Part shown: in pieces, positions 422-14,875 of the stretch | Layout: each line of letters starts with the position of its first letter | Numbering within the stretch: the first letter of the stretch is position 1 | UHGV virus genome: UHGV-0197611 | DNA from: a virus | Strand: one strand, 5' to 3' | DNA: 15,153 bases | Program-made: the position numbers and the translations under genes | The notes under the pieces: generated by a model | Databases searched by the model: none | What the model was told of the DNA's origin: nothing | Seen by the model: the letters and a program-made list of their open reading frames with translations, nothing else

Positions 422-482
422 GTGCAAATTTGCACTATGCCAGCCAACGCAATTTTGCGTTATCGGGAATATCAGCAAGTTA
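422..482. repeat. Left-end repeated module, copy B: 14-bp palindrome GTGCAAATTTGCAC (422-435), CCAGCCAAC (440-448), ATTTTG (452-457), TCGGGAATATCA (462-473), AGTTAC (477-482)
   Basis: Read directly. Lies immediately 3' of the 96-aa ORF on the minus strand, whose TAA stop at 480-482 sits inside the AGTTAC motif. Confidence 0.7.
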
Positions 483-770
483 CCGCCGCAGTCGTTCCGG
501 CTTCTTCCACTGGTAAGTATTTTTCGCGCTCTCCCTCCGTTGTTGAGAACGGCGACGGTATGCCAGCAACTCAAGGACTCTGGTTCGTATGTTGCGCATA
601 TCCACGCCGTTAAGCTCAATACCGTCACGGCGCATCACCTCAGCCACCACACGCGCGTAATTTTCGGCTATCACGCTGTCCGGCTGTGTAGCCTGTTCGT
701 CAGGCTGCTGACTGATTCCGGTAATGCGGCGAATTATTTTTAGTAGATCAGTTTCAGTCATTCTCGTCAT
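480..770 (-). CDS. Hypothetical protein (96 aa), translationally coupled to TerL; basic C-terminus
   Basis: ATG at 770-768 overlaps the TerL TGA stop (ATGA, 767-770). No recognisable motif. A plus-strand ORF (393..743) overlaps it and cannot be fully excluded. Confidence 0.5.
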   Translation of the reverse strand: MTRMTETDLLKIIRRITGISQQPDEQATQPDSVIAENYARVVAEVMRRDGIELNGVDMRNIRTRVLELLAYRRRSQQRRESAKNTYQWKKPERLRR

Positions 771-2428
771 ACCCCATCAAACGCCGCAAGTCGCTCTTTG
801 TGGCTGTCGCTCATATCAAATGCAAATTCCTCATGCTCTGCCTGGAATGTGCCAAACGCCATCAGCGCCGCAACGCTCGGGTCTATCTTGTTGGATGATT
901 TTTTCTTGTTCGGCTTGATATTGGCGTTCGCGTCACTCTGCATCACAACATTACTCATTGACCAGGCCAGCACCGGATCACCACGATGCACAATCACCTT
1001 CCGGTTAACAAAAACTTCGAACGATTTCGCCGCCGGACTGAAACGAAGGTATGTTTGCGGGAACGGCTCCACCTCAAATCCTGCCCCCTGTAGCTGCGTC
1101 CTCAGGTGCGTGGCGTTCCATGTATCGAAGCCCACCAGCCTGATATTGAAATTCTCTGCATCCGCCATGATGTCATCACGGATACGGTCATAATCAATGC
1201 AGTCACCCGGTGTTGTGCGTATCCAGCCCGCCTTTACCCACTGGCGATAGATGGCGCGGTTTTTATTGGCGGGGTTCTGTAGCTGAAATTCCGGCAGATA
1301 GTGACGGGAAACCAGCATAATCTTTTTACCGACCGGAAAGGCATAGCACACGCTGGAAATATCGCTGGTTGATGATAAGTCCAGCCCCGCGTAGCACTCC
1401 TGCCCGTATAAATCCGCCTCCGCGAACGTTCCGGCGCACTCCGCCCATGCACCGTTACCCATCCACGGCGTAGCCCCCTGACACCAGATATTGAATCGCT
1501 TGGTGAGCATTTCCACCCACTGCGACGGAATACCCCGCGCTTTCTGGATGGTTGAGGCCAGTTTTTCACGATCGACGGAAACATCGATATTTGGATTCGC
1601 CTTTATCCACATCGCCGGATCGTCAACCTCGCTTTCATCATCCAGCTCGTAAATCAGAACGAACATGGATTCGTTCATCTCTTCACCATCCAGTATCTGA
1701 CAGCAATAGTCATAGTGTTGTTTACAGGCTGAAACAACGTTGCTCCCCGATGTGGTGATGGCAAATAACAGCCCCTCCGGACGCGCCCCCATCCCCAGCT
1801 CAAGTGCGGAATAAACCCCGTTGTCTGGGTGCAGGTGATATTCATCCACAATGGCAAGACTCGGGTTTGTCCCCTCAATGGTTGCCGCTTTTGCTGCCAG
1901 TGGCTTTAACAGGCTGTTGGTTTTCGGGTGTATCACCTTGTGCGCCTGAATATTTACCCGCTTTCGTAACGGTCGGGATAAAAGGCACATCTGACGCGCA
2001 TCATCAAACACGATCCGCGCCTGATCACGACTCACGGCGGCGGTGTAAATATCCTGCTGCCCGTTTTCCATAACCAGAAACCAGTTAGCCAGGATAGCGG
2101 CGACCGTGGATTTGGCATTTTTTCGCGGTACTTCAATGAATGCGCTGGTGTATTTGCGCCGTCCGGTGGCCTTAACCTTAAAGCCCAGGATGCAGGCAAA
2201 GGCGAACTGCTGCCACGGCTCCAGTTCAATGGGACTACCGCGCATTGCGCCTTTTACGTGCGGACACACCCGGGAAAAGGCAATAAACCGCTCCACGACA
2301 TCCGGATCGAACGTGTAAAGGGAGTTTTCAAGGTCAGAAAAATACCGTTTAACGGCCTGTTTCAGTCGTTTACAGGCCGTAATTTTGCCGTTTTTTACGC
2401 CTTCTGCGTACTCATGCCAGGCGGTCAA
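767..2428 (-). CDS. terL: Terminase large subunit (HK97-like Terminase_1 type)
   Basis: 553-aa translation with deviant Walker A-like VPRKNAKST and Walker B-like LAIVDEYH, and overall large-terminase character. The only in-frame start before the conserved N-terminus is TTG at 2428-2426. The TerS stop (2412-2414) overlaps the 5' end. Confidence 0.92.
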   Translation of the reverse strand: MTAWHEYAEGVKNGKITACKRLKQAVKRYFSDLENSLYTFDPDVVERFIAFSRVCPHVKGAMRGSPIELEPWQQFAFACILGFKVKATGRRKYTSAFIEVPRKNAKSTVAAILANWFLVMENGQQDIYTAAVSRDQARIVFDDARQMCLLSRPLRKRVNIQAHKVIHPKTNSLLKPLAAKAATIEGTNPSLAIVDEYHLHPDNGVYSALELGMGARPEGLLFAITTSGSNVVSACKQHYDYCCQILDGEEMNESMFVLIYELDDESEVDDPAMWIKANPNIDVSVDREKLASTIQKARGIPSQWVEMLTKRFNIWCQGATPWMGNGAWAECAGTFAEADLYGQECYAGLDLSSTSDISSVCYAFPVGKKIMLVSRHYLPEFQLQNPANKNRAIYRQWVKAGWIRTTPGDCIDYDRIRDDIMADAENFNIRLVGFDTWNATHLRTQLQGAGFEVEPFPQTYLRFSPAAKSFEVFVNRKVIVHRGDPVLAWSMSNVVMQSDANANIKPNKKKSSNKIDPSVAALMAFGTFQAEHEEFAFDMSDSHKERLAAFDGV

Positions 2429-2768
2429 GTTCGTCCTCTTCCTCTGTTTCCGGTGGATTTCTGCGACGGCTTACCGGGTCAAAACCCAGCAAAGAAGCCA
2501 TTTTGATCATTATTCTTTCTGCGTCAGCCTTTGCGCTCAGTGCGGGGTTTCTGCTCTCGCTGCCCTGACTGTTAACAATGCTGAACCCGCGCGTCGCAAG
2601 GTCTTCGACGGCTTTGCGGTATATGGAGTAGTTAACACAATACAGTTCCAGATTGCTCCAGTCGGCGGGGGTAAGGTCTTCCCGCCCGGAAAGCTGGCGC
2701 GATTTTTCCTTCCACTGCCTGACCGCGATTTCATCCAGGTAAGCGGGGGCTTTTGGTGGTCTTGCCAT
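2412..2768 (-). CDS. terS: Terminase small subunit (P27-family-like)
   Basis: ATG at 2768-2766 gives 118 aa beginning MARPPKAPAYLDEIAVRQW... with the conserved LELYCVNYSIY segment typical of P27-type small terminases. The longer track ORF (to 2909) starts upstream at a non-conserved extension. Confidence 0.82.
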   Translation of the reverse strand: MARPPKAPAYLDEIAVRQWKEKSRQLSGREDLTPADWSNLELYCVNYSIYRKAVEDLATRGFSIVNSQGSESRNPALSAKADAERIMIKMASLLGFDPVSRRRNPPETEEEDELDRLA

Positions 2769-2887
2769 GTTCTTTTTTCGCCCAATTATTTTCAAAAAAA
2801 TTACCGTGCACAAAAATTTGAGGGGGCGGTCGGTGTCCGGCAGGGACGGTTTCGTCCTGAAAACCACCCCCACCCCCTCTGACGGCC
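2769..2887. other. Structured intergenic region between HNH gene cluster and terS; candidate cos/packaging-initiation region or attenuator
   Basis: G/C-run inverted repeat GAGGGGG (2820-2826) / CCCCCTC (2873-2879) enclosing an imperfect hairpin CAGGGACGGTTTCGTCCTG, flanked on the terS side by A/T runs. Its position between HNH and terS is where HK97-type cos sites are expected. Confidence 0.3.
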
Positions 2888-3073
2888 TCACCAGCGATTG
2901 CGAAAACATTCCATGACCTCGCGGTCACGGTCGGTTAATCGCTTCGCTGTGGTGCGTTTTGTGCGCCCTGTCCTGTTGGCTTTGTGCTCTGTCTCCTGTG
3001 TCTTCCATGTGTCACGCTGCCTTATCAGTCCACGTATCAGCCTGGTTTGCTCCTGTTCAGTCATCATCGCCAT
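2888..3073 (-). CDS. Small basic hypothetical protein (about 61 aa), start overlapping the HNH stop
   Basis: ORF MAMMTEQEQTRLIRGLIRQRDTWKTQ... fills part of the 288-bp gap between HNH and terS. No clear RBS. The track's 126-aa version overlaps HNH in another frame and is unlikely. Confidence 0.3.
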   Translation of the reverse strand: MAMMTEQEQTRLIRGLIRQRDTWKTQETEHKANRTGRTKRTTAKRLTDRDREVMECFRNRW

Positions 3074-3497
3074 ACATCCAGTCGTTACGGTGTGCCGCCC
3101 GTTCTTCCTGCTCGCGATACATGCCCGCTTTACGGTTTGCTTTCGTGGCTGGATCTTCCCGTGTCGTCTTACGGTTGTGGCACGTCTGGCACAATGCCTG
3201 GTGATTCCACTCAGGCCAGAAGAGAACATCACCGCCGCCATTGATGGGAATGATGTGATCCACCACAAGAGCTGGCGTATAAATCCCCTTAGCCAGACAA
3301 CGCACGCATAACGGGTTTTTGCTCAGGTACAGGGCGCGGTATTTGTCCCACTGTCGGGAATACCCGCGCGCGCGGCGGTGTCCCCGTCTGGCATCCTCTG
3401 CACGCCATGCAGCCCGCCTGTGCTCTTCACACTTGCCGGACTTCACGCGCTTATTACAGCCAGGCTCAGTGCATCGCCTTAATGGTTGCCACGGCAT
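3057..3497 (-). CDS. HNH endonuclease (terminase-associated type)
   Basis: 146 aa with Cys pairs (CTEPGC, CVRC, CQTC) and the HNH core DHIIPINGGGD...NHQALCQTCHNRK. ATG at 3497-3495 overlaps the upstream gene's TGA stop (TGATG). Confidence 0.88.
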   Translation of the reverse strand: MPWQPLRRCTEPGCNKRVKSGKCEEHRRAAWRAEDARRGHRRARGYSRQWDKYRALYLSKNPLCVRCLAKGIYTPALVVDHIIPINGGGDVLFWPEWNHQALCQTCHNRKTTREDPATKANRKAGMYREQEERAAHRNDWMYGDDD

Positions 3498-3799
3498 CAG
3501 TACACCCCTACGTCACGATAAACTGACCAGAGCGCAGAAATAGCCATAGGCAGTTCCGAGTGCTCCACTGGTGAAACCGCTTCCCGGTTCTCGTACAGGA
3601 AAGCGATGTACATCAGGCAACCAACACGCATTGCCGGGGTAAATTCCAGCCCGTCTTCAAAACGTTTCCCGATATGCTTCTGGCAGGCTTCCAGCGCCGC
3701 ATCGGTATACATTTTCAGAAGTTCGCCTTCACCGGATAAATCATCATCAAGTCGAAGATGTGCCCTGACTTCATCAGGTGTAATTCTGGCTTCACTCAT
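3497..3799 (-). CDS. Head-tail connector protein (gp6-like, Phage_connect_1 type)
   Basis: ATG at 3799-3797 preceded by GGGAGA RBS. The 100-aa product MSEARITPDEVRAHLRLDDD... matches the characteristic N-terminus of gp6-like connectors. The track ORF begins at an upstream GTG. Confidence 0.75.
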   Translation of the reverse strand: MSEARITPDEVRAHLRLDDDLSGEGELLKMYTDAALEACQKHIGKRFEDGLEFTPAMRVGCLMYIAFLYENREAVSPVEHSELPMAISALWSVYRDVGVY

Positions 3800-5006
3800 C
3801 TTTTCTCCCTTTAATTTCCACAGTCTGTTTCCATGCCTGGCTGAACTCATCACCACCTTCACGCGGCGGCATACCCTCACGCTCACGGGCTTCGTTCGGA
3901 TTCATGATCCCGTTCTTAATCCCTTTCTCATACGTGGCATAACGTTCGGTGGGTGTGGCGCGTAATAAATCGGCTGAATCAAACTCAACCAGATAACGGG
4001 TACCAGGTACGGGAGAAGCCACCAGCAAAGCGGCCTTGATTTGCTGTTCGAAGTTCGCCAGCCACGGGCGCATTGTCATGGTCAGAAACGCGCGGCTTGC
4101 CTCGCTGAAATTGCTGTAGGTGCTGTTGCTGTATTCCTGCAGAAAAATAGGCGATACGTTGAACATGCGGGCGATGTCTTCAATGGAGAAGCGACGGGAG
4201 GCCAGCCATTCCGCATCCTGGTTACTCATTCCCAGTTGCCTGTAATCCATGCCCCCTTCAAGGATTGGCGTTTTTCCGGCATTTTTCGCCCCCTTGTAGC
4301 GTTCCAGAGCATCCAATGCCTGTTTACCTTTCACGCCGTCCAGCCATTCGCCTGACGTGATAATCCCTGCCGCCATCATGCCATCTTTCATAATGCTGGC
4401 TCCGTGGCGCTGTTGAGCAAGGCCAAGCCCAAGTGCCTCACGGCAAATCGTGACGGGGGAGCGCCCCAGAAAGCCATCATCCGAGGCATAGCGGAGATGC
4501 AGAACTTCTTCCTGTAAATACGTGCGCACCGTTCCTGTATAGGGTTCGGTGATGGTATAGCGGTATTTGTGTGCGCCTGTGCGTTCCGGTACAACACACC
4601 CCGGCGCATAAGGATGAAGTGATTTTGGCTGCCCGTCCTGCCCCCACTCAATAACCGCATAGGCGTTACCGTTCAGCAGGCAGTGACGCATCATTGTGCG
4701 TTTAAACTGGTAAGGTGTCTGGCACGAATTAGGCTGCTCATTCAGCAGAATATCTACCGGGTGACTGTCCAGCCATTCCCGCGCCTCCCTGCCCTTGTCA
4801 TTACGTACCAGATACAGATAACACGGCATCGTGGCCACCGCCTCAGCGATGACAGAAACCGCATTCATCACTGCAGGCAATGATTCAGCCGTCCCGGCAG
4901 AAACATATTCTCCGGATCCGGTATTCGGTACGCCGGACAGCGCCAGAAAATCATCAATGGACAGGTTACGCTGCTCGCTTTTTTTACGACTAAAAGGCCA
5001 CCACAT
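3792..5006 (-). CDS. Portal protein (HK97 family-like)
   Basis: About 400-aa product downstream of the prohead protease and upstream of the connector. Start chosen at ATG 5006-5004 (MWWPF...), 1 nt after the protease TGA stop. The track's TTG start at 5096 would overlap the protease gene by 90 nt. Confidence 0.85.
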   Translation of the reverse strand: MWWPFSRKKSEQRNLSIDDFLALSGVPNTGSGEYVSAGTAESLPAVMNAVSVIAEAVATMPCYLYLVRNDKGREAREWLDSHPVDILLNEQPNSCQTPYQFKRTMMRHCLLNGNAYAVIEWGQDGQPKSLHPYAPGCVVPERTGAHKYRYTITEPYTGTVRTYLQEEVLHLRYASDDGFLGRSPVTICREALGLGLAQQRHGASIMKDGMMAAGIITSGEWLDGVKGKQALDALERYKGAKNAGKTPILEGGMDYRQLGMSNQDAEWLASRRFSIEDIARMFNVSPIFLQEYSNSTYSNFSEASRAFLTMTMRPWLANFEQQIKAALLVASPVPGTRYLVEFDSADLLRATPTERYATYEKGIKNGIMNPNEAREREGMPPREGGDEFSQAWKQTVEIKGRKDE

Positions 5007-5007
5007 A

Positions 5008-5568
5008 TCACAACCCCGCCAGCTCAGACCAGCGATGACGATTATTTCCTGTCGGGCATAATTCAGGGTGCTGTGCAAACAACGAACGGTGGGCAATCTC
5101 CACGCCAGATTCTGGATAAGCAGGCATCGACGTTATTGTGATTTCACGGAGTTCAGCGGCGGTTACGGTACGCAAATACGGTTTTTGCGCGATACTCCAC
5201 TCCTCGCATAATGCGCGAAAACCAAAGCTCATTCCTGTAATGTCGCCACGCTCCACCAGCGTAAGCACATCTTTTCCAAGCTGGGTATCCGGCGGTGTCA
5301 GTTCAAAACGTAACCCGGTGTTATCCTCAGTCAGTACCAGAGTGCCGGATTTGGTGCGCCCCAGCAGTTGGGTATAGTCATGCTCATACAGGCAGCGCAC
5401 ATCATTACCCGCCGCCAGATAGTCAGCAAAAGCCCCCGGCGTGAACTGTTCGCGGAATTCGTCCCAGATAATTTCTGAAAGGCTGTTCCAGCGAACGGCA
5501 TACCCCACCAGCTTTTTATTGCTGGCGGTCAGTTCAGATGTGCGGATTTCAAAATCGGTGTTTTTCAT
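5008..5568 (-). CDS. Prohead maturation protease (HK97 family, S78-like)
   Basis: 186-aa product with the typical N-terminus (..LVGYAVRWN..) and size. ATG at 5568-5566 with GGAG upstream. Sits between capsid and portal. Confidence 0.88.
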   Translation of the reverse strand: MKNTDFEIRTSELTASNKKLVGYAVRWNSLSEIIWDEFREQFTPGAFADYLAAGNDVRCLYEHDYTQLLGRTKSGTLVLTEDNTGLRFELTPPDTQLGKDVLTLVERGDITGMSFGFRALCEEWSIAQKPYLRTVTAAELREITITSMPAYPESGVEIAHRSLFAQHPELCPTGNNRHRWSELAGL

Positions 5569-5622: not shown

Positions 5623-6792
5623 CTAGCCAGCTTTCATTTCCAGAATTTTGATGGCGTTTGAATCCACCACACCACCGCCCAGATATTTATCCGTGTGGAC
5701 CTTGTAGAATCCGGGTTCAGTAATGTTGTCCGGTCGGGTGCGAATCCCTGTTACATGATCAACGATGAAATAACCACGACTGAAATCGCCAACCGCTAGC
5801 GGTGCTTTTCCTGCGCCGATGTCCGGCATGGACTCCAGGCAGTAAACAGGACGACCAAGCAACATATCCGGCGCACCTTCTTTAAGGCTGTCGCGCCAGA
5901 TATAATCGCCGTTCTCATTTTTCAGCTTCTGTAGTGTCCCTGCCGTGCCCGAGTTCATCACCCAGACGGCATTTTTGCGGTATTTCGCTTTCAGCTTGTA
6001 GAGAATGTCGATCAGTTCGTCCGCTGTAATGGCGGTTCCACTTGCCGCTACCATTTTTTCAATGGTGCCAAAAGCGCGGGTTTTGTCACTGGTCGCCGCA
6101 CGGGTGTAAGCCATGAAGCCTTTCGGCTTGCCGTTACCGTTGCCATTAACAAAATCATCCTCTTCGGTGCTGGCGAACGTGTCGGCAATTTCGGAGGATA
6201 ACCAGCCCAGAATATCCACCTCTGAAAAATCTAGGATTTCCTGCGTGGTTTTCGGGTAGGCGTAGATCGGGTTCAGCTTGATGGTTACGCGTTCAATTTT
6301 CGGGGTGTTGGTTTCACTGCGTGCGCTGCCTTCTGTGCCTCGTCCTACAGTTGCGCCGCCAGTGGAAACCAGTTTCTGAAACTCATTTGATTTTGCAGTC
6401 TTCACGGTCGCGATCACGCGCATAACACTGTCATCCTGTAGCTGGCGCATGACTTCGCGATCAAGCTCAGGAATTACGGTATATCCGCCATCCCTGCCGC
6501 TGTCAGTGCTGGTGGACAGAGATCGCACATCTCCGGTTACGATGTAGTTACGCAATTCATCAGATGATACTTTCTGGATGCCCGTTCCTGGCTTGCTGCG
6601 TTCTTCATCAGCCACAGACTCGAGGCGGGAAATGTCTGTATCGAGGGAATCAGCTTTTGCACGCAGTTCATCAAACTGTTTGCCCTCGTCATCGTTCAGG
6701 CTGCGGTTTTCACTGTCGGCTTTTTCCAGCAGGGATCGCATCTGGTTTTTCAGGGCGTTTTTTTGCTGGCGGAGCTCGATTAATTTCTTCAT
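5623..6792 (-). CDS. Major capsid protein (HK97 fold) with N-terminal delta/scaffolding-like coiled-coil domain
   Basis: 389 aa. The N-terminal ~100 residues are charged and coiled-coil-like (MKKLIELRQQKNALKNQMRSLLEKAD...) and are followed by a capsid body. ATG at 6792-6790. Gene order capsid-protease-portal. Confidence 0.9.
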   Translation of the reverse strand: MKKLIELRQQKNALKNQMRSLLEKADSENRSLNDDEGKQFDELRAKADSLDTDISRLESVADEERSKPGTGIQKVSSDELRNYIVTGDVRSLSTSTDSGRDGGYTVIPELDREVMRQLQDDSVMRVIATVKTAKSNEFQKLVSTGGATVGRGTEGSARSETNTPKIERVTIKLNPIYAYPKTTQEILDFSEVDILGWLSSEIADTFASTEEDDFVNGNGNGKPKGFMAYTRAATSDKTRAFGTIEKMVAASGTAITADELIDILYKLKAKYRKNAVWVMNSGTAGTLQKLKNENGDYIWRDSLKEGAPDMLLGRPVYCLESMPDIGAGKAPLAVGDFSRGYFIVDHVTGIRTRPDNITEPGFYKVHTDKYLGGGVVDSNAIKILEMKAG

Positions 6793-7039
6793 GAAGGTTT
6801 TCTCGTATTGGTTAAGATTCAGGACGTGAAACCAACACGGAGGGAGCGCCGCCCGACACTCTCGGCATCTCGCAGATCAACCCGGCATCGCGCAGGGGAT
6901 CGGACGGCAACAGTGGCGGCTCACGTCTGAGTGCCACTATTTAAGATATGGATCAAAAAATTGATGTAAATAAGGTATTTTTGTTACGAACAGTCTTGAA
7001 TGTTAACACACAAATAATTTACAAAAATGCTGATAAACT

Positions 7040-7786
7040 ATGGAGATTCAAGTGACAAAAGAAATTCTTGCTGTTCCTGGGATGCGACCATCCCCATTGT
7101 TCAAAAGGACTTATAAATTAGTTCGGGAGATTGACGAAAGATTAACCAAACTGATTCATAGATGGCGATTTTTCAATGCAGGCCCCCCCATGAAAGTTAC
7201 TGCATATGATGGAACAGAAATATGCTATCAAGGTTTGGCATTTAAAGGTACTCCCGTTCAAATTTTTTGGAATGGTTTTATCGATCCTTACATTGAAAAT
7301 AACTCAGAAATTGTTTTAGAGCAGACCTCCGCGTTAGCAATTGAATGTCAATTCTCAATAGAGGAGTCAATCGAGGAGGCTAAATTACTATTACTTGTGA
7401 TGATTCGCAGGCTTTACTATGAAATGGCCGAAACAGATAAAATATTAAGAGGTGATGGGTTTTCCTTCCCAGAAAAAAAAGACGTTAGTGGTTATATTGA
7501 AAGTATCTCTCAAAAAATCATAGAACATGCTGAAATTGAAAAGCTAAAAAAAACGCATCCAAAACAAAACATATTCAACATAGCTACTGTAAATAGCCAA
7601 TACGTACAACTTGGTACAAATAACAATATTAATATACAAGAGCTCTCTGAGTTCTTCTCAAAAATTGCATCAACTGGTGAAAAAGAAATTATTACTCTCT
7701 CAAAAAACCTTCTTAAGAAGGCCTACTCAAAAAACTTACTGAGTAAAGAAAACTATGAAGCTCTAATATCAAACCTTAACACATAG
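7040..7786 (+). CDS. Hypothetical protein (248 aa), first gene of AT-rich plus-strand cassette
   Basis: Long ORF in a markedly AT-rich segment on the opposite strand to all flanking modules. Its C-terminal region (FNIATVNSQYVQLGTNNNINI...KNLLKK) is paralogous to the C-terminus of the next gene. No strong SD upstream. Confidence 0.72.
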   Translation: MEIQVTKEILAVPGMRPSPLFKRTYKLVREIDERLTKLIHRWRFFNAGPPMKVTAYDGTEICYQGLAFKGTPVQIFWNGFIDPYIENNSEIVLEQTSALAIECQFSIEESIEEAKLLLLVMIRRLYYEMAETDKILRGDGFSFPEKKDVSGYIESISQKIIEHAEIEKLKKTHPKQNIFNIATVNSQYVQLGTNNNINIQELSEFFSKIASTGEKEIITLSKNLLKKAYSKNLLSKENYEALISNLNT

Positions 7787-7845
7787 ACAAAATACACTTT
7801 CAAATCTACTAGTTAAACGCAAAAGCGATCACGAGGAGCAACATA

Positions 7846-8355
7846 ATGGATCTTAACGTCATGGCATATCCAGAAAAATTCACAATCGCAGGAGTTGAAT
7901 ACAAGGGGAAAAGAAACTCAGCTGAAAAAAAAGTGCTAATCCCTTATACTGAAGAACCAGATATTAATATTGGAGATGAAATCACTCAAAAACTAGGGAA
8001 GGGGGAAATAATATTAAAAGTAATTGATATGTCATTTTTACCAGGAGGTACACTCAATGTTGGTACTAATCACCCTCACATGCTTACATTAAAAGTCGAG
8101 AATCTGACTGCTAATGAACATAAACCAAAACAATCTAGCCAAAATACATTTAACATTGGTAACATATCCGGTACACAGGTTCAACTCGGTGAGCATAACA
8201 ATCTTATTGTAAATCTCAGCATAACTGAACTTGTTGAAAAAGTTTCTCAATCACAAGATCCTCAGGCAAAAAATTTGCTTAAGGATTTACTAAATAATAG
8301 TACGGTAGCCAGTCTCGTTGGTGCTGGTGCGTCCGCCTTGTTAACAATGCTTTGA
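7846..8355 (+). CDS. Hypothetical protein (169 aa), second cassette gene; short hydrophobic small-residue C-terminal tail
   Basis: ATG at 7846 preceded by GAGGAG (7833-7838). Shares the module FNIGNISGTQVQLGEHNNLIV...KNLLKDLL with the upstream protein. Ends in TVASLVGAGASALLTML. Followed immediately by a strong hairpin. Confidence 0.8.
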   Translation: MDLNVMAYPEKFTIAGVEYKGKRNSAEKKVLIPYTEEPDINIGDEITQKLGKGEIILKVIDMSFLPGGTLNVGTNHPHMLTLKVENLTANEHKPKQSSQNTFNIGNISGTQVQLGEHNNLIVNLSITELVEKVSQSQDPQAKNLLKDLLNNSTVASLVGAGASALLTML

Positions 8356-8356
8356 G

Positions 8357-8388
8357 TATATGGCCTGGCAAAGAGCCAGGCCATATAA
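8357..8388. terminator. Bidirectional hairpin between convergent genes
   Basis: Perfect 13-bp stem TATATGGCCTGGC / GCCAGGCCATATA with 6-nt loop, 2 nt after the plus-strand stop (8353-8355) and 1 nt before the minus-strand stop (8390-8392). No long T-tract on either side. Confidence 0.55.
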
Positions 8389-8389
8389 T

Positions 8390-8650
8390 TCATTTCTCAC
8401 TCATCCAATTAGGAGGTAGTGGCATTTTTTTCCTTAAAACCTGCAAATGCTCAATCAAAACATTAACCTGCTCTTGATTTGTTGCAAGGATTTCATCTGA
8501 TAGCGTGCTACGAATAAAATCATGATGGTCAATCCACAGTAAACCACCATTTGCAAGGGCCTGACGGTACTGAGTGGTAGGCATTGAAGCAATATCATGA
8601 AGTCCGAATTGATCAAAATAATTGTTTATTTCATGCGTCAGAATCGGCAT
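8390..8650 (-). CDS. Hypothetical protein (86 aa)
   Basis: ATG at 8650-8648 with AGGAAG RBS. AT-rich. Located between the iteron origin and the cassette, convergent with the cassette. A tandem TTTATCTAA x2 (8664-8681) lies in its 5' leader. Confidence 0.6.
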   Translation of the reverse strand: MPILTHEINNYFDQFGLHDIASMPTTQYRQALANGGLLWIDHHDFIRSTLSDEILATNQEQVNVLIEHLQVLRKKMPLPPNWMSEK

Positions 8651-8792
8651 TATTTCTTCCTATTTTATCTAATTTATCTAATTTGTAGTCATTTTTAACC
8701 AGTATTCGGTCAAATCAAGCGCGTGTTTTTGTGTGCTTTACTGTCATAGTCTTTATCTCACAGCAGTAAATTAAAATTTTTGCGTTTTAACC

Positions 8793-9020
8793 CTTCACCT
8801 GTTCACCTTTTGATATTTTATCTTTTAATTCATAAGGTTAAGGGGTGAACAGTTTCACAAAAACTATTCACCAACTGTTCACCACTGTTCACCCTTGAAG
8901 CTCAATAAACAATCAAAAAGGTGAACAGTGAATAGTTTGGTGAACAGTTCATAAATAACTGTTCACCCTATAATATACTGATATAAAAGATATTTATGAC
9001 AGGGTGAACAGTGGTGAACA
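8793..9020. repeat. Iteron array / putative origin of replication (P4 type I-like octamer TGTTCACC)
   Basis: Nine perfect copies of TGTTCACC/GGTGAACA in both orientations (plus strand 8800, 8876, 8886, 8960; complement 8844, 8920, 8939, 9003, 9013), plus degenerate copies (8793, 8865, 8928), interspersed with AT-rich spacers and lying immediately 3' of the replication gene. Confidence 0.8.
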
Positions 9021-9034
9021 GTTATTCCATAAGT

Positions 9035-10852
9035 TTAATTTTTGCTATCGTCATTAGTGACCGATACACATGATGGCATCCAGTCTTCTGATTCCTCCGT
9101 CAGTGTCACGTTTGAACGCAAACCGTGCTTCGTTTTCCGTTTCATATACTCCCTGCCATATTCCGCCATTGCCCCCGGCATATCTTTACCGAAGCGCGTC
9201 AGTGTTACAGGTTTACCAAACCCATGTGCCCTCATATAAGCCAGATAGGCATGATAGAGATATCTGCGCGGGCTGAATGGCACAATTTCAGCATTACCCA
9301 CTAACAGGCCATCACACATTACCGACGCCATGAGATAGCCGCAGAAGTCCACCAGCGAATCCCCCTCTCGCTTTATCGCCAGTGCTTCTTCAGATTTCTG
9401 CTGCTCATATAACAGGCGTCTGGCTTCGTCCTGGTTAGCAAACCGTGTAAGCAGATGGCGAATCACTACCGCCAGCTCACCTTCTATTTTTTCCGCCAGC
9501 ATCGGATCACGTTCGTTCTCCGGTACAACTTCCGAAAAATTGAATATCACCCGACGACGTGAGATCCCCCCGCTGCGGTCACTGAATGACATGGCGTTAT
9601 TGTTAACCGCCAGCACTACTGCCGGAATACGCGTTGAGTAGGGAGCTTTGTGTTTCGGGTCAATTGCCACCTTGTCACCGCCTGTAATGGCCTTAATCCC
9701 TGCCCCATCACCAGCGTAGCGGGTCATATCCGGCATGATAATCAGAGAAAAGCCAACCACTAACGCACGTTCCCTTGCATCTTCCAGCGCCTTCATGCTT
9801 GCTGATACTGTATTAGCCTTACCCGCCAGCATGGTGCAAATCTCCGCCATTACGCTTTTACCGCTTCCACCAGGACCAGTTACCTCAATGAATAACTGCC
9901 AGTCATATCTGTTCGCCAGCACCATGAATAATGCCGCCAGTACACGATCCGCTTTGCGATCATTCTCAGCCACCGAACGGTGCAACCACTTCCAGAAATT
10001 CGGCGCATGTGTTGCCAGCGTTTCCCCCTCTGCTGGTGGGCTGAAAGGTAATTCACTGGCAATTAACAACCAGTCGTTTTTGTTATGCTCCCGAAAATTA
10101 CCTGTTCTGGTATCAAATACCCCGTTACTGAATCCAATCAAGTTACGGGCTGTATTCCCCATTACAGGCAAACTTAACTTCATGGTATCGACCGCTGATT
10201 TAATAGCGTTCTGTGAATAGCTGATCTCCGCATCAATGAAAATCTGCGCCATAGCACGCTGTAACTCTTTATCCTGAACCGGCTCCCATACAACGCCGTT
10301 GTAATGGTGAACAGTGTCAGAGTCAGCATGAATCGCCAGTTCACCACCATAATGTGCCAGGAGAACTTCGCCGCGTTGACTTGCTCCCATCTGGTTAAGC
10401 GCCAGTGATGAAGCGTTATCGTCTTTTACCCGCTCTTTTTTCTTTACAGGCAGTTCAACAACCTTTTTCTTTTCCGCCAGCTCTCCCCGCTCACGCTCCA
10501 GATATTCGCGCCAGTTCTCCCGTTTCTGGCTGTGCATTCCTTCAGGGTAATAATCAGCATCCCTGACACCTGCCGCTGCCAGTTTCTGCCCGATGGTATT
10601 AACAAGTCCCGGACGCAATAACCCCGCCTGATAGAGACGCACACGATAGCGTCCGTCTGGTACGATTTGCAGGTTGTCCAGTTCGGCAAGTTGTTGCTCT
10701 CCAAGCCAGACAGGTGGCACGTTATCGCCAGCCAGTCGCCCGTCCTGTTCCTGCCACTGCTTCGCATGTGCCCACGCATCACTACCCGCAAAAATGATGA
10801 CTTCCGTCATTTTGTCACGCGGTTGGTGTTTTAAATTTGGCGCTTTTTTCAT
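9035..10852 (-). CDS. Replication protein, P4-family primase C-terminal (D5_N-like) + SF3 helicase (alpha-like)
   Basis: 605 aa from ATG 10852-10850, which overlaps the upstream gene's stop (ATGA). The track start is an upstream GTG. Walker A GPGGSGKS and Walker B-like SLIIMPD. Iterons lie directly downstream. Confidence 0.88.
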   Translation of the reverse strand: MKKAPNLKHQPRDKMTEVIIFAGSDAWAHAKQWQEQDGRLAGDNVPPVWLGEQQLAELDNLQIVPDGRYRVRLYQAGLLRPGLVNTIGQKLAAAGVRDADYYPEGMHSQKRENWREYLERERGELAEKKKVVELPVKKKERVKDDNASSLALNQMGASQRGEVLLAHYGGELAIHADSDTVHHYNGVVWEPVQDKELQRAMAQIFIDAEISYSQNAIKSAVDTMKLSLPVMGNTARNLIGFSNGVFDTRTGNFREHNKNDWLLIASELPFSPPAEGETLATHAPNFWKWLHRSVAENDRKADRVLAALFMVLANRYDWQLFIEVTGPGGSGKSVMAEICTMLAGKANTVSASMKALEDARERALVVGFSLIIMPDMTRYAGDGAGIKAITGGDKVAIDPKHKAPYSTRIPAVVLAVNNNAMSFSDRSGGISRRRVIFNFSEVVPENERDPMLAEKIEGELAVVIRHLLTRFANQDEARRLLYEQQKSEEALAIKREGDSLVDFCGYLMASVMCDGLLVGNAEIVPFSPRRYLYHAYLAYMRAHGFGKPVTLTRFGKDMPGAMAEYGREYMKRKTKHGLRSNVTLTEESEDWMPSCVSVTNDDSKN

Positions 10853-11148
10853 TTCTGCTCTCTCCACGCGGCAATCATGTTTTTCAGTTCCTGTAGTTTT
10901 TTATCCACATCCACACGTGACACATGGTTATTTCTGGAAGGCGGGATTTCCCGCCCGAATCTGCAAATAAAGATCTCCACGTTCAGCGAGCTATGAAATG
11001 AATAGCCATCACGAATAAAGTACACACGGTCAAACATTATCGATTTTACTGTTACTCTGTTGCCGTTCTTATCCCGATAAATAGCGCCGGGGATAATTTT
11101 GGGATGTGCATAACCGCTGGCAGTCAAGCCAGATAAATACGTTCTCAT
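10849..11148 (-). CDS. Hypothetical protein (99 aa), translationally coupled to the replication gene
   Basis: ATG at 11148-11146. Stop overlaps the primase start. No recognisable motif. Confidence 0.6.
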   Translation of the reverse strand: MRTYLSGLTASGYAHPKIIPGAIYRDKNGNRVTVKSIMFDRVYFIRDGYSFHSSLNVEIFICRFGREIPPSRNNHVSRVDVDKKLQELKNMIAAWREQK

Positions 11149-12705: not shown

Positions 12706-13439
12706 GTTCGCCCTAAGTATTTAGCCCACGTATTCTTATCTGTTGCGGGAAGAAACACCCCTTTCATCGCTGCCGCAGCCTCTAAAACAGCGATCACTTT
12801 AGCAACTGGAGCAGTTCCAATATCTATATCATCCATTTCTGGAATTAGTTTGATTAATGCAGGGATCAACTCAGCTTTCTTCGCAAGAGTTTTTGGCGAT
12901 TCTCCCATTTTTCTTCCAGGCATGGTTCCAACATCTTTGATATGCTCCAAATCCTTAGCCATTACACATAAAAACCTTCTGTCGATCTCAATAGCCCCAT
13001 CACTCATAATTTGACATTCCCAGTTTTCTGATTCAGGACGAGTTGAAAAAAAAGATGATACTATCCTTGCATCATTGCCAATAAATTCAAGTTCAGAAAA
13101 ACTTTCCCGATTTAGATAGAAGAAACCGCAAAAATTCTTTGCAAGATAAGAAGCCACACCAAAATAATTTACCCATTCAAAATCGCTACCAACAGGCTTC
13201 ATCCCTGTAATTACCCAGCGATCCCCTTGCAACATCCCTCCAGAATCAACATCAATATTTTCAACTAATGATTTTGGTATAACTAGCGATTTACATGGAT
13301 GACAGTTTGGAAAATAAACAGAAATATTCAAAGCACCTATAGCAGCAAAATGATATATATCATTAAGCGTACATCCCAGCTTCTTTGCTGCTTCAGGCAA
13401 TGGATAATATATACGCTCAGGGATGCTTATCTTTTTCAT
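12702..13439 (-). CDS. Hypothetical protein (245 aa) with N-terminal HTH-like segment; between integrase and alpA
   Basis: ATG at 13439-13437 overlaps the integrase stop (ATGA). N-terminus PEAAKKLGCTLNDIYHFAAIGAL looks like a helix-turn-helix. More AT-rich than int and alpA by eye. Confidence 0.75.
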   Translation of the reverse strand: MKKISIPERIYYPLPEAAKKLGCTLNDIYHFAAIGALNISVYFPNCHPCKSLVIPKSLVENIDVDSGGMLQGDRWVITGMKPVGSDFEWVNYFGVASYLAKNFCGFFYLNRESFSELEFIGNDARIVSSFFSTRPESENWECQIMSDGAIEIDRRFLCVMAKDLEHIKDVGTMPGRKMGESPKTLAKKAELIPALIKLIPEMDDIDIGTAPVAKVIAVLEAAAAMKGVFLPATDKNTWAKYLGRT

Positions 13440-14659
13440 TTCGCTACCTTCAATATTTTTACATTTGAATACTGACCAGAAATAACCTCAAGCCGTTCCA
13501 TCCATTTATTTAGAGCGTCTAGTTTTTCTGGTAAGTACTGGCTACGATTGTATATGGCCATTACACCACCTAATGTGTGACCGAGAAGCTGTTCAACAAC
13601 ATGTGGTGCAATCCCCATGTTATTTAGTGTGGTAGCAAACGTCCTGCGCAGGTCGTGAAGTGTCCACGATTCAATATGCCCCAGACGCTTATATATCATC
13701 CTCCCCCATTGGCTGACAGCTTCTGGTTTCTTTATTTCACCCAACAAAAGACCTGAGTTTTTGTGTTGCTCTATAAGCTGTTGGATGAATGGGCGTATTA
13801 CCACTGGAATAGGGCGCAATATCTTCTCTCCGCCTTTGCTGTGTTCTTTAGGCACTGTCCAGATCCAATCCTTTAAATCCCACTCTGTAATACGTGACAA
13901 CCGAAGCTCCTGGGTTCGACATCCAAACACCACCAATAGACGCAACAACGATGAATAGTATGGTTTAAATTTCTTACCTGAACATTCCTGCCAAATATCT
14001 GCTAACTCTTGACTGCTGTGTTCCCTATCGCGCTTATTCTGTTTTCTACCAACATCATCGATAGTCAGGTCATCCAGAGCATTGCTAACCGCATAACGAT
14101 GTACGCGGCAAAACTTCAGAGCCTGCTTACACATCTGCAGCAAATAACCAGCTGCCACTGGAGCGTCATTCCTTACTCTAGCGAAACACTCCAGCCAATG
14201 CCGGGTTTCGCACATTGATAACGGATAATCACCTATATAGGGGAAAATATGCTTCCTCAGTTGCTCAATGTGTTTATCAACATTCGTGCGCTTGTAAACG
14301 GCGTATTCTCTGATCCAGTAATCCAGAGCCTCTTTTACCGTCACTGGTTTGAGTGTTTCATGTATTGCCACATTTAACCGATGCTTTGGATTTTTACCTT
14401 CAGCAAGCCATGCTCGACACTGTTCACGTTTCTCGCGCGCAGCTTTCAGAGAAAGATCCGGGTAGTTTCCAAGCTTAACACGCTGTGAATACGATTCACG
14501 CCCACCAATCCGGAAAGAGAAATACCAAGTAAGAACGCCAATTTTTGACACCTTGATACTCAATCCATCACCGTCAGCATAAAATCTATCTCTATCGATT
14601 TCCCTCCCCAGCATCTTACGCAACGATGTATCGCTTAATTTGTTCGTTCCTCCAGCCAT
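13436..14659 (-). CDS. int: Tyrosine site-specific integrase (P4-like)
   Basis: 407 aa from ATG 14659-14657 (AAGG upstream); the track start is an upstream alternative codon. C-terminal catalytic signature HDLRRTFAT...LLGHTLGGVMAIYNRSQY and a typical N-terminal arm-binding-like region. Confidence 0.92.
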   Translation of the reverse strand: MAGGTNKLSDTSLRKMLGREIDRDRFYADGDGLSIKVSKIGVLTWYFSFRIGGRESYSQRVKLGNYPDLSLKAAREKREQCRAWLAEGKNPKHRLNVAIHETLKPVTVKEALDYWIREYAVYKRTNVDKHIEQLRKHIFPYIGDYPLSMCETRHWLECFARVRNDAPVAAGYLLQMCKQALKFCRVHRYAVSNALDDLTIDDVGRKQNKRDREHSSQELADIWQECSGKKFKPYYSSLLRLLVVFGCRTQELRLSRITEWDLKDWIWTVPKEHSKGGEKILRPIPVVIRPFIQQLIEQHKNSGLLLGEIKKPEAVSQWGRMIYKRLGHIESWTLHDLRRTFATTLNNMGIAPHVVEQLLGHTLGGVMAIYNRSQYLPEKLDALNKWMERLEVISGQYSNVKILKVAK

Positions 14660-14685
14660 AGAAAACCTTAATTCATATTGAAAAC

Positions 14686-14707
14686 TGACTGCACCACTGA
14701 CTGCACA
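14686..14707. repeat. Int-proximal direct repeat copy 1: TGACTGCAC-C-ACTGACTGCAC-A (two tandem TGACTGCAC units)
   Basis: Identical 22-mer recurs at 14920-14941. Copy 1 lies 27 bp upstream of the int start codon. Confidence 0.75.
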
Positions 14708-14875
14708 CTTTAATATTACCCTATGAACAGAAATGAACAAAGGTAAACTAAAGAAACAACATTAATCATTTTATTCAATAAGTTATATAAACACTAACGA
14801 ACCATGACAAACTGTAAGAAACATAGGTTTTGATAATACGGCATGAACTAATTCAGGTTAGCTAAATGCTTGATT

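Follow-up and report, generated by a model that had tools for sequence, protein, structure and literature searches.

The region from 2786 to 2879 of viral genome UHGV-0197611, analysed over a window of 15,153 nt (the whole stretch of DNA at its full length), is very probably the element's own packaging site: a cohesive end site (cos) of the HK97 type, at which cleavage would be assisted by an HNH endonuclease and would leave 3′ overhangs. Judged by its genes, the 15.2-kb window is an Escherichia coli capsid-forming phage-inducible chromosomal island (cf-PICI), and the site lies between the genes for the HNH endonuclease and the small terminase subunit (terS), both on the minus strand. The preliminary description of this DNA had placed the island's cos there, and the placement is supported since similarity to known cos ends, conservation among 58 variants of the region and the ends of two virion-derived assemblies of relatives all agree. 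A cos in this position is what a specialist would expect, and it is an ordinary site of a known type. Members of the cf-PICI family carry their own packaging machinery and pass from one species to another by enclosing their own DNA, and no other, in their own capsids, an exclusivity that must reside in the cos/TerS pair. The literature that could be searched infers a cos mechanism for cf-PICIs without locating the site. For a cf-PICI cos, the cut, the overhang and the TerS-binding A-tract are now predicted at nucleotide level; these predictions make testable the specificity difference from HK97-like helper phages and the functions of a conserved G-run and a small open reading frame (ORF), and they make buildable minimal packaging cassettes for cf-PICI-based DNA delivery.

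Genes of the packaging operon are tightly coupled, as had been noticed earlier, with overlaps of 1–17 nt (portal/adaptor 8 nt, adaptor/HNH 1 nt, HNH/small ORF 17 nt, terS/terL 17 nt). The sole sizeable non-coding gap in this overlapping operon lies in the interval from HNH to terS, which measures 288 bp (2769–3056), the separation first reported. Its truly non-coding part is likewise the 119 bp originally described (2769–2887). Read on the coding strand, this part runs stop-GGCCGTCA GAGGGGGTGGGGGTGG TTTTCAGGAC GAAACCGTCCCTGCCGGACAC CGACCGCCCC CTCAAATTTTT GT GCACGGTAATTTTTTTGAAAATAA TTGGGCGAAAAAAGAAC ATG. The following segments are distinguished, with signed positions counted from the predicted cut:

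2864–2879, minus strand: upstream G-run element GAGGGGGTGGGGGTGG, with the family-invariant core GGGGTGGGGG, assigned from invariant columns and a fixed distance to the cuts.
2854–2863, minus strand: TTTTCAGGAC, which with the G-run element makes up the left conserved block of cos.
2833–2853, minus strand: variable spacer holding most of a clade-specific hairpin (2841–2859), assigned from conservation over 2830–2849.
2823–2832, minus strand: putative cosN equivalent, where cleavage would leave a 10-nt 3′ overhang, 5′-CGACCGCCCC-3′, predicted from alignment to known ends.
2786–2822, minus strand: left-end block CTCAAATTTTTGTGCACGGTAATTTTTTTGAAAATAA, including TCAAATTTTT at +2 to +11, assigned from conservation and alignment.
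2786–2809, minus strand: predicted TerS-binding site GCACGGTAATTTTTTT(GAAAATAA) at +14 to +37, from its position match to HK97.
2769–2785, minus strand: variable leader and terS ribosome-binding region (conservation 0.77 over 2769–2789).

The cos motifs are single-copy in the island. A G-run as strong as that at 2864–2879 (at least 9 G in 11 nt) is found at one other place in the window and is expected in 0.23 % of shuffled 100-mers of the window.

The comparison set consisted of the joined ends of phage genomes with the HNH/terS arrangement (HK97, HK022, D3 and phi644-2), plus ST64B and the Pasteurella cf-PICI Pmp8. The ends of HK97 have been mapped experimentally, the overhang of phi644-2 has been published, and the ends of HK022 and D3 were read from their linear records. 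Both the cleavage site and the TerS-binding site of HK97 are mapped; the minimal TerS site spans +15 to +29 and requires its A-tract, the bases concerned being T16, C:G at 21 and the A-tract at 24–29 (PMC11331095). In phi644-2, 10-base 3′ extensions are present, with 5′-CGCCCGCTTC-3′ on the right (PMC2920897). The published overhang CGCCCGCTTC is exactly the final 10 nt of the phi644-2 linear record, which ends ...GGGGAGGGGGGTGAAAAAG...CCGGGACCGCCCGCTTC and starts GTCAAATTTTCACGCCCGCGAAAAATGAAATTTAA. Similarly, the published numbering of the HK97 TerS site fits the HK97 record base for base, that record ending ...GGGCAGGGGGGGGGATCAAATC...ATGACCGCCGCCAAA and starting GTTTGAATTTAACGCTAACCCGATTTTTTTAG. 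The ends of HK022 and D3 follow the same plan, as do ST64B (a circular record) and Pmp8. The order HNH-cos-terS is common to the island, ST64B, phi644-2, HK97, HK022 and D3; the phage linear records start 36–49 nt upstream of terS and end after HNH, and the circular ST64B record starts 15 nt upstream.

Region 2786–2879 aligns block for block with the cos sites of HK97, HK022, D3 and phi644-2. The shared blocks are a G-run at −41 to −56, then GGAC(AC), a C-rich 10-mer, TCAAATTTT at +2 and an A/T tract at about +21 to +30, the last of which is the TerS-binding site in HK97. The alignment is anchored on the ends of phi644-2 (...GGGACCGCCCGCTTC/GTCAAATTTT, the solidus marking the cut), D3 (...GGACACCGCGCCCCCA/GG) and HK97 (...GACCGCCGCCAAA/GTTTGAATTT). 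Measured from the end of the G-run, the known cut lies 40–42 nt away in the linear records of HK97, HK022, D3 and phi644-2, and the predicted cut lies 41–44 nt away in the window, ST64B, Pmp8 and KpCI. The G-run itself is 9–13 nt long in the four phages, despite their differing hosts and the non-P27 TerS of HK97. No description of a G-run element at HK97-type cos sites was found in the literature that could be searched, and a G-run at fixed distance, common to distant sites of this type, appears from these alignments to be a new recognition.

The minus-strand cut is predicted to fall between 2823 and 2822 (...GGACAC-CGACCGCCCC/CTCAAATTTTT...), with about 3 nt of uncertainty, because four anchors agree on one register. 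These are TCAAATTTT at +2, matching phi644-2; the T7 tract at +23 to +29, compared with +24 to +30 in HK97; GGACAC at −16 to −11, matching D3; and the distance from the G-run. The accompanying plus-strand nick is predicted between 2832 and 2833, and the island DNA would be expected to terminate in ...GGACACCGACCGCCCC-3′ on the right and in 5′-CTCAAATTTTTGTGC... on the left. The T7 tract (2794–2800) is invariant, is preceded by a conserved GCAC(G/A)GT and is positioned like the HK97 TerS site, and by analogy TerS may bind at 2786–2809. Just downstream of the predicted cut there is also a two-fold symmetric sequence, AAATTTTTGTGCACGGTAATTT, which overlaps the predicted TerS site; the symmetry is partial, spans 2798–2819 and is centred on a GTCGAC-like GTGCAC (2806–2811).

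Conservation within the family was assessed by aligning 58 distinct versions of the region from the HNH 3′ end to terS, taken from IMG/VR loci. Mean conservation of the whole non-coding stretch 2769–2887 is 0.87, with 44.5 % invariant columns, compared with 0.75 and 7 % at HNH third codon positions and 0.81 and 28 % at terS third codon positions. The stretch is thus under functional constraint well above the level of synonymous sites. Invariant columns reach 74 % over 2790–2816, where TTTTTTTGAAAATAA does not vary, and mean conservation is 0.81 with 25 % invariant columns over 2830–2849 in the spacer. The conserved blocks are GGGGTGGGGG(N)GGTTTTCAGGAC, CC(C/T)CCTCAAATTTTT and GCAC(G/A)GT(N)ATTTTTTTGAAAATAA. 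Free variation is seen in two parts: the spacer of about 20 nt that separates the cut from the G-run block, and the final 20 nt or so before the terS ATG.

Two structural features had been reported for this stretch, inverted G5/C5 runs and an internal hairpin. The runs are present as a 10-nt inverted repeat (2820–2829 and 2870–2879, 90 % complementary, with 40 nt between the arms), but they are really the conserved G-run plus the C-rich overhang region. The hairpin is present at 2841–2859 and appears in the minimum-energy folds; however, it is specific to a clade and is not conserved. Because its 3′ arm is replaced in other cf-PICI clades and stem changes within the clade are one-sided, the hairpin is regarded as incidental and was rejected as a functional element. 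Folding of the stretch is only modestly unusual (z of about −2.1), with 5–7 of 200 shuffles folding as well.

This folding bears on a different view of the stretch, that it is mainly a transcriptional or RNA element in which the G-run/C-run stem and a U-run form a terminator or attenuator limiting terS-terL expression, with no packaging site present. Folded as RNA, the transcribed strand does give a long GC stem (−45 kcal/mol, z=−2.05) with AAAUUUUU after it, and in 8 out of 10 relatives the minimum-energy fold pairs the G-run with the C-rich sequence at the cut. However, the pairing is not kept in HK97 or in the variant L062, covariation is not demonstrable with the G-runs always on one strand, and in HK97, HK022, D3 and phi644-2 these blocks coincide exactly with the physical ends of the DNA. 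Since both arms resemble homopolymers and never change strand, the pairing is indistinguishable from two independently conserved motifs. An intrinsic terminator has a short GC hairpin with a 3–8 nt loop and an immediate T-run; here the loop between G-run and C-run is about 40 nt (40 nt in the window) and variable, and the stem was not called by a terminator scan. On the minus strand that scan returned two weak sites, 2930–2911 within the small ORF and 2885–2870 overlapping the G-run, which is at chance level (2 found versus 0.9 expected). Rfam gave no match with E up to 1 on either strand of 2600–3200. A terminator or attenuator in place of a packaging site is improbable on this evidence, and a secondary regulatory role of the structure is possible.

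A promoter or operator driving terS-terL apart from the capsid genes would also suit the only sizeable non-coding gap of an overlapping operon, and the downstream half of the gap is A/T-rich. Yet no sigma-70-like site occurs on the coding (minus) strand, the single plus-strand match is at chance level (1 found versus 0.5 expected), and the conserved blocks match phage cos sites rather than promoter hexamers. The stretch is accordingly very improbable as a promoter.

A further source of evidence for a cos is the DNA of relatives. Packaged DNA of the Klebsiella element KpCIDSM30104 forms concatemers via cohesive ends (He et al., bioRxiv 10.1101/2025.02.11.637232). The record vB_KppS-Ant (LR881103) is a de novo SPAdes assembly from Nextera XT libraries of particle DNA (PMC8006926). 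Its genes are int, primase, capsid, protease, portal, HNH, terS and terL, and it is the cf-PICI of K. pneumoniae ATCC 13883/DSM 30104. ATCC 13883 is presumably the same strain as DSM 30104, the strain name that appears in PMC8006926. A pattern scan of genome contigs recovered Kluyvera and the chromosome of ATCC 13883, the host of vB_KppS-Ant. The record agrees with that chromosome without a mismatch over 3000 nt to either side, and it lacks exactly 69 bp in the intergenic region between the small ORF and terS. Of these 69 bp, 31 nt fall to the right-end side of the homologous cut and 38 nt to its left-end side; that cut is predicted in the ATCC 13883 copy at ...CCCGCCCC/CTCAAATTTT. The gap fits the way in which tagmentation libraries made from linear molecules lose a few tens of nt at both physical ends. 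As a point of nomenclature, LR881103.1 is labelled ‘Escherichia phage’ in GenBank, and its authors describe a filamentous ssDNA prophage.

The second assembly is Klebsiella phage P12620-1 (PQ569648.1, 106.5 kb), in which about 90.6 kb of another phage is followed by a 15.9-kb cf-PICI segment (90645–106503). The segment begins at terS codon 1 and extends to 5 nt short of the small-ORF stop, where the record ends as well; the cf-PICI has been broken, as a linear contig, in the intergenic region between the small ORF and terS. Sequence upstream of the junction is unrelated to cos, and the ‘complete genome’ appears to be a join of two contigs with the junction exactly at terS codon 1. Together, these two virion-derived Klebsiella assemblies end 31–76 nt from the predicted cut. 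About 80 IMG/VR contigs cross the cos region unbroken, many of them being, to judge by their identifiers, prophages predicted in bacterial assemblies.

The same data argue against packaging of the island by a headful (pac) mechanism, or at a site elsewhere with the repeats here being incidental. No support for such packaging was found. An HNH protein, a P27-type TerS and an HK97-like TerL form a cos-type module, cohesive ends are reported for KpCIDSM30104, conservation of the stretch is well above the synonymous level and the virion assemblies break in the cos region. Headful packaging, or a site elsewhere, is hardly to be expected.

Several observations nonetheless count against a cos at 2786–2879, or against its exact placement. 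Two metagenome contigs break about 25 nt upstream of the predicted cut, in the variable spacer (L251 at its start, L274 at its end). Either stop could mark a physical end or an assembly break close to the G-run, and on this account some of the breaks in the region may be assembly effects; weak coverage of stretches rich in G or in A/T could in principle lie behind the virion-assembly breaks as well. No contig among the IMG/VR and metagenome contigs starts exactly at the predicted left end. One candidate for such a start, L224, was rejected as a storage cut that is no contig end. The cut position derives from an alignment of short low-complexity motifs, in which other registers shift it by up to 3 nt. 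A BLASTP comparison of the island TerS with HK97 gp1 found no similarity, so the comparison with HK97 is one of DNA architecture and its binding mode is transferred by position. Finally, the literature that could be searched contains no mapped DNA ends of this or any E. coli cf-PICI.

For a cos at 2786–2879, packaging may be envisaged as follows. After excision and replication, the island TerS would bind the A-tract site GCACGGTAATTTTTTT(GAAAATAA) at 2786–2809, about 14–37 bp downstream of cleavage. TerL, aided by the island HNH protein, would stagger nicks around CGACCGCCCC (2823–2832) to give 10-nt 3′ cohesive ends. Packaging would then run from CTCAAATTTTT... into terS, terL and the remainder of the island and stop at the next cos, with the G-run side entering the capsid last. 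The G-run (2864–2879) may serve as a termination or docking subsite similar to lambda cosQ.

Among the closest parallels are the cos sites of the Escherichia phages HK97 and HK022, where the cohesive ends are 3′, the HNH protein gp74 stimulates cleavage and the order is likewise HNH-cos-terS-terL. In these phages, as in the island, the sequence at the cut is C-rich and +1 to +12 is A/T-rich; the G-run ends 42 nt upstream of the cut and a T7 tract occupies +24 to +30 (+23 to +29 in the island), which in HK97 is part of the mapped TerS-binding site. HK97 differs in its TerS, which lies outside Pfam Terminase_4 and is not detectably similar in sequence, in its overhang sequence, and in having no complementarity between G-run and overhang. 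The bases contacted in HK97 (T16 and C:G 21 in CTAACCCG) are replaced in the island by GCACGGTA, a substitution that fits a separate packaging specificity of the island.

In the Burkholderia siphoviruses phiE125, phi1026b and phi644-2 (10-nt 3′ overhang CGCCCGCTTC), TerS also belongs to the P27 family and HNH is the last gene. The phi644-2 sequence GGGAC-CGCCCGCTTC/GTCAAATTTTCACGC...AAAAATGAAATTTAA aligns with GGACAC-CGACCGCCCC/CTCAAATTTTTGTGC...TTTTTTTGAAAATAA of the island. Unlike the island, these phages have about 40 extra N-terminal TerS residues, no small ORF between HNH and cos, and A5 instead of T7 as the second tract. The island TerS is 32–33 % identical to the TerS of phi644-2 (32 %) and ST64B. 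Identity reaches 83–85 % with the TerS of KpCIDSM30104, whose deposited name is ‘phage vB_KppS-Ant’, and is just as high with the TerS on a contig from phages propagated on E. coli EDL933. At 118 aa, the island TerS is without the approximately 40 N-terminal residues present in the P27-family TerS of phi644-2 and ST64B and has a short MARPPK arm only.

Other satellites, such as P4, cos-type Staphylococcus aureus pathogenicity islands (e.g. SaPIbov5) and classical E. coli PICIs (e.g. EcCICFT073), likewise need a cos in their own genome for mobilisation. However, they copy or mimic the cos of a helper and use the helper terminase (redirected by Rpp in EcCICFT073), whereas this island has its own HNH, TerS and TerL with an adjoining cos, as described for cf-PICIs. 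The cos of lambda (cosQ-cosN-cosB) is similarly tripartite, with an element upstream, the cleavage site itself and, downstream and beside terS, a segment that binds TerS. Lambda has 12-nt 5′ overhangs, no HNH partner, and R-sites and an IHF site in cosB, and its sequence is unrelated to that of the island. The island cos is not of the lambda type: its TerS is Terminase_4/P27, an HNH partner is present and it aligns with 3′-overhang cos sites. To call the G-run ‘cosQ-like’ is an analogy only.

Upstream of the non-coding stretch lies the small ORF, which the preliminary description had read correctly as a 61-aa arginine- and lysine-rich frame:

2888–3073, minus strand: small basic ORF, 61 aa from the first ATG (RefSeq WP_001251188.1; full-length match to phrog_3173, E=6e-27).

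The ORF overlaps the 3′ end of HNH and has 16 R+K versus 9 D+E among its 61 residues. Its first ATG, however, is not the likely start. The third ATG (3064–3062) is probably the true one, giving 58 aa, because M4 is an invariant methionine among the variants. Since this ATG overlaps the HNH stop as ATGACTGA, the sequence suggests translational coupling to HNH. Conservation in related islands, which had been recommended as a check, is borne out: the ORF is open in 51 of the 58 variants with indels in frame. Three sequence subtypes share the C-terminus (S/T)(E/Q/D)R(D/E)RE..ECFRNR(W). Within the conserved C-terminal third, the three codon positions have conservation values of 0.91/0.93/0.77. Because the variation is concentrated at third positions, the constraint acts on the protein and not on a DNA element, and the C-terminal coding part was rejected as a cis element.

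In 7 of the 58 variants (L011, L018, L041, L053, L062, L080 and L081) the frame is disrupted, whether by a stop at codon 45, by an 11-nt deletion that shifts the frame or by a large deletion; all seven keep the cos blocks, and the small ORF thus forms no part of cos. Neither the Pasteurella cf-PICI nor the phages compared have it, which together with the disruptions indicates a real but dispensable, lineage-specific gene. No match was obtained in Pfam, NCBIfam or PADLOC, in a tblastn search of 50,697 phage records, or in the Protein Data Bank with Foldseek for the AlphaFold2 model, which consists of two helices (predicted local distance difference test score 77). A profile search of 1.8 billion representative proteins recovered only 10 clusters, and the range of the family is limited to a few enterobacterial clusters. 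The gene is therefore a genuine one of a narrow lineage, under coding selection, and encodes a small, basic, helical protein; that this protein is an accessory to packaging is a guess from gene position. A bolder combination would be that the G-run is an obligatory subsite of HK97-type cos sites, docking HNH or the translocating TerL or acting in cosQ-like termination, and that the phrog_3173 protein is a packaging specificity or accessory factor of enterobacterial cf-PICIs that separates island from helper packaging. As a whole this combination is speculative and rather unlikely.

The remainder of the window places this packaging site in its island. The queried 1.1 kb (2400–3500) is identical to a chromosomal island in several of 515 complete E. 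coli genomes; in MS6198 the island is about 14.5 kb and is flanked by fis and a yhdJ pseudogene. cf-PICIs are 10–18 kb long and have an integrase, a replication module and their own capsid, protease, portal, adaptor, HNH, terS and terL genes, without tail or lysis genes. Integrase, replication and own capsid/packaging modules are all present in the approximately 14.5 kb, and no tail or lysis genes were found among the window genes. The gene order is int, primase, capsid, protease, portal, adaptor, HNH, terS, terL:

13436–14740, minus strand: integrase.
9035–10867, minus strand: primase-family replication protein.
5623–6792, minus strand: major capsid protein.
5008–5568, minus strand: prohead protease.
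3792–5006, minus strand: portal.
3497–3799, minus strand: head-tail adaptor.
3057–3497, minus strand: HNH endonuclease, 146 aa, the terminase-associated nuclease of HK97-type packaging modules (Pfam PF01844 E=8.8e-10; phrog_144 E=3.6e-45; annotated in RefSeq).
2412–2768, minus strand: small terminase terS, P27 family, 118 aa, ATG at 2768–2766 (Pfam Terminase_4 E=1.6e-23; TIGR01558 E=6.7e-18).
767–2428, minus strand: large terminase terL, 553 aa (Pfam TerL_ATPase and TerL_nuclease; phrog_9 E=2e-180).

Between the capsid and replication modules, window positions 7001–9000 have a GC content of 32–37 %, compared with about 52 % in the packaging module. This low-GC segment contains ORFs at 7040–7786 (plus strand), 7846–8355 (plus strand) and 8390–8650 (minus strand), the two plus-strand ORFs having no Pfam or PADLOC match, and it is probably accessory cargo of the island. 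Directly 3′ of terL, a conserved ORF at 480–770 (minus strand), which is without a Pfam or NCBIfam family, matches phrog_1561 (E=1e-53).

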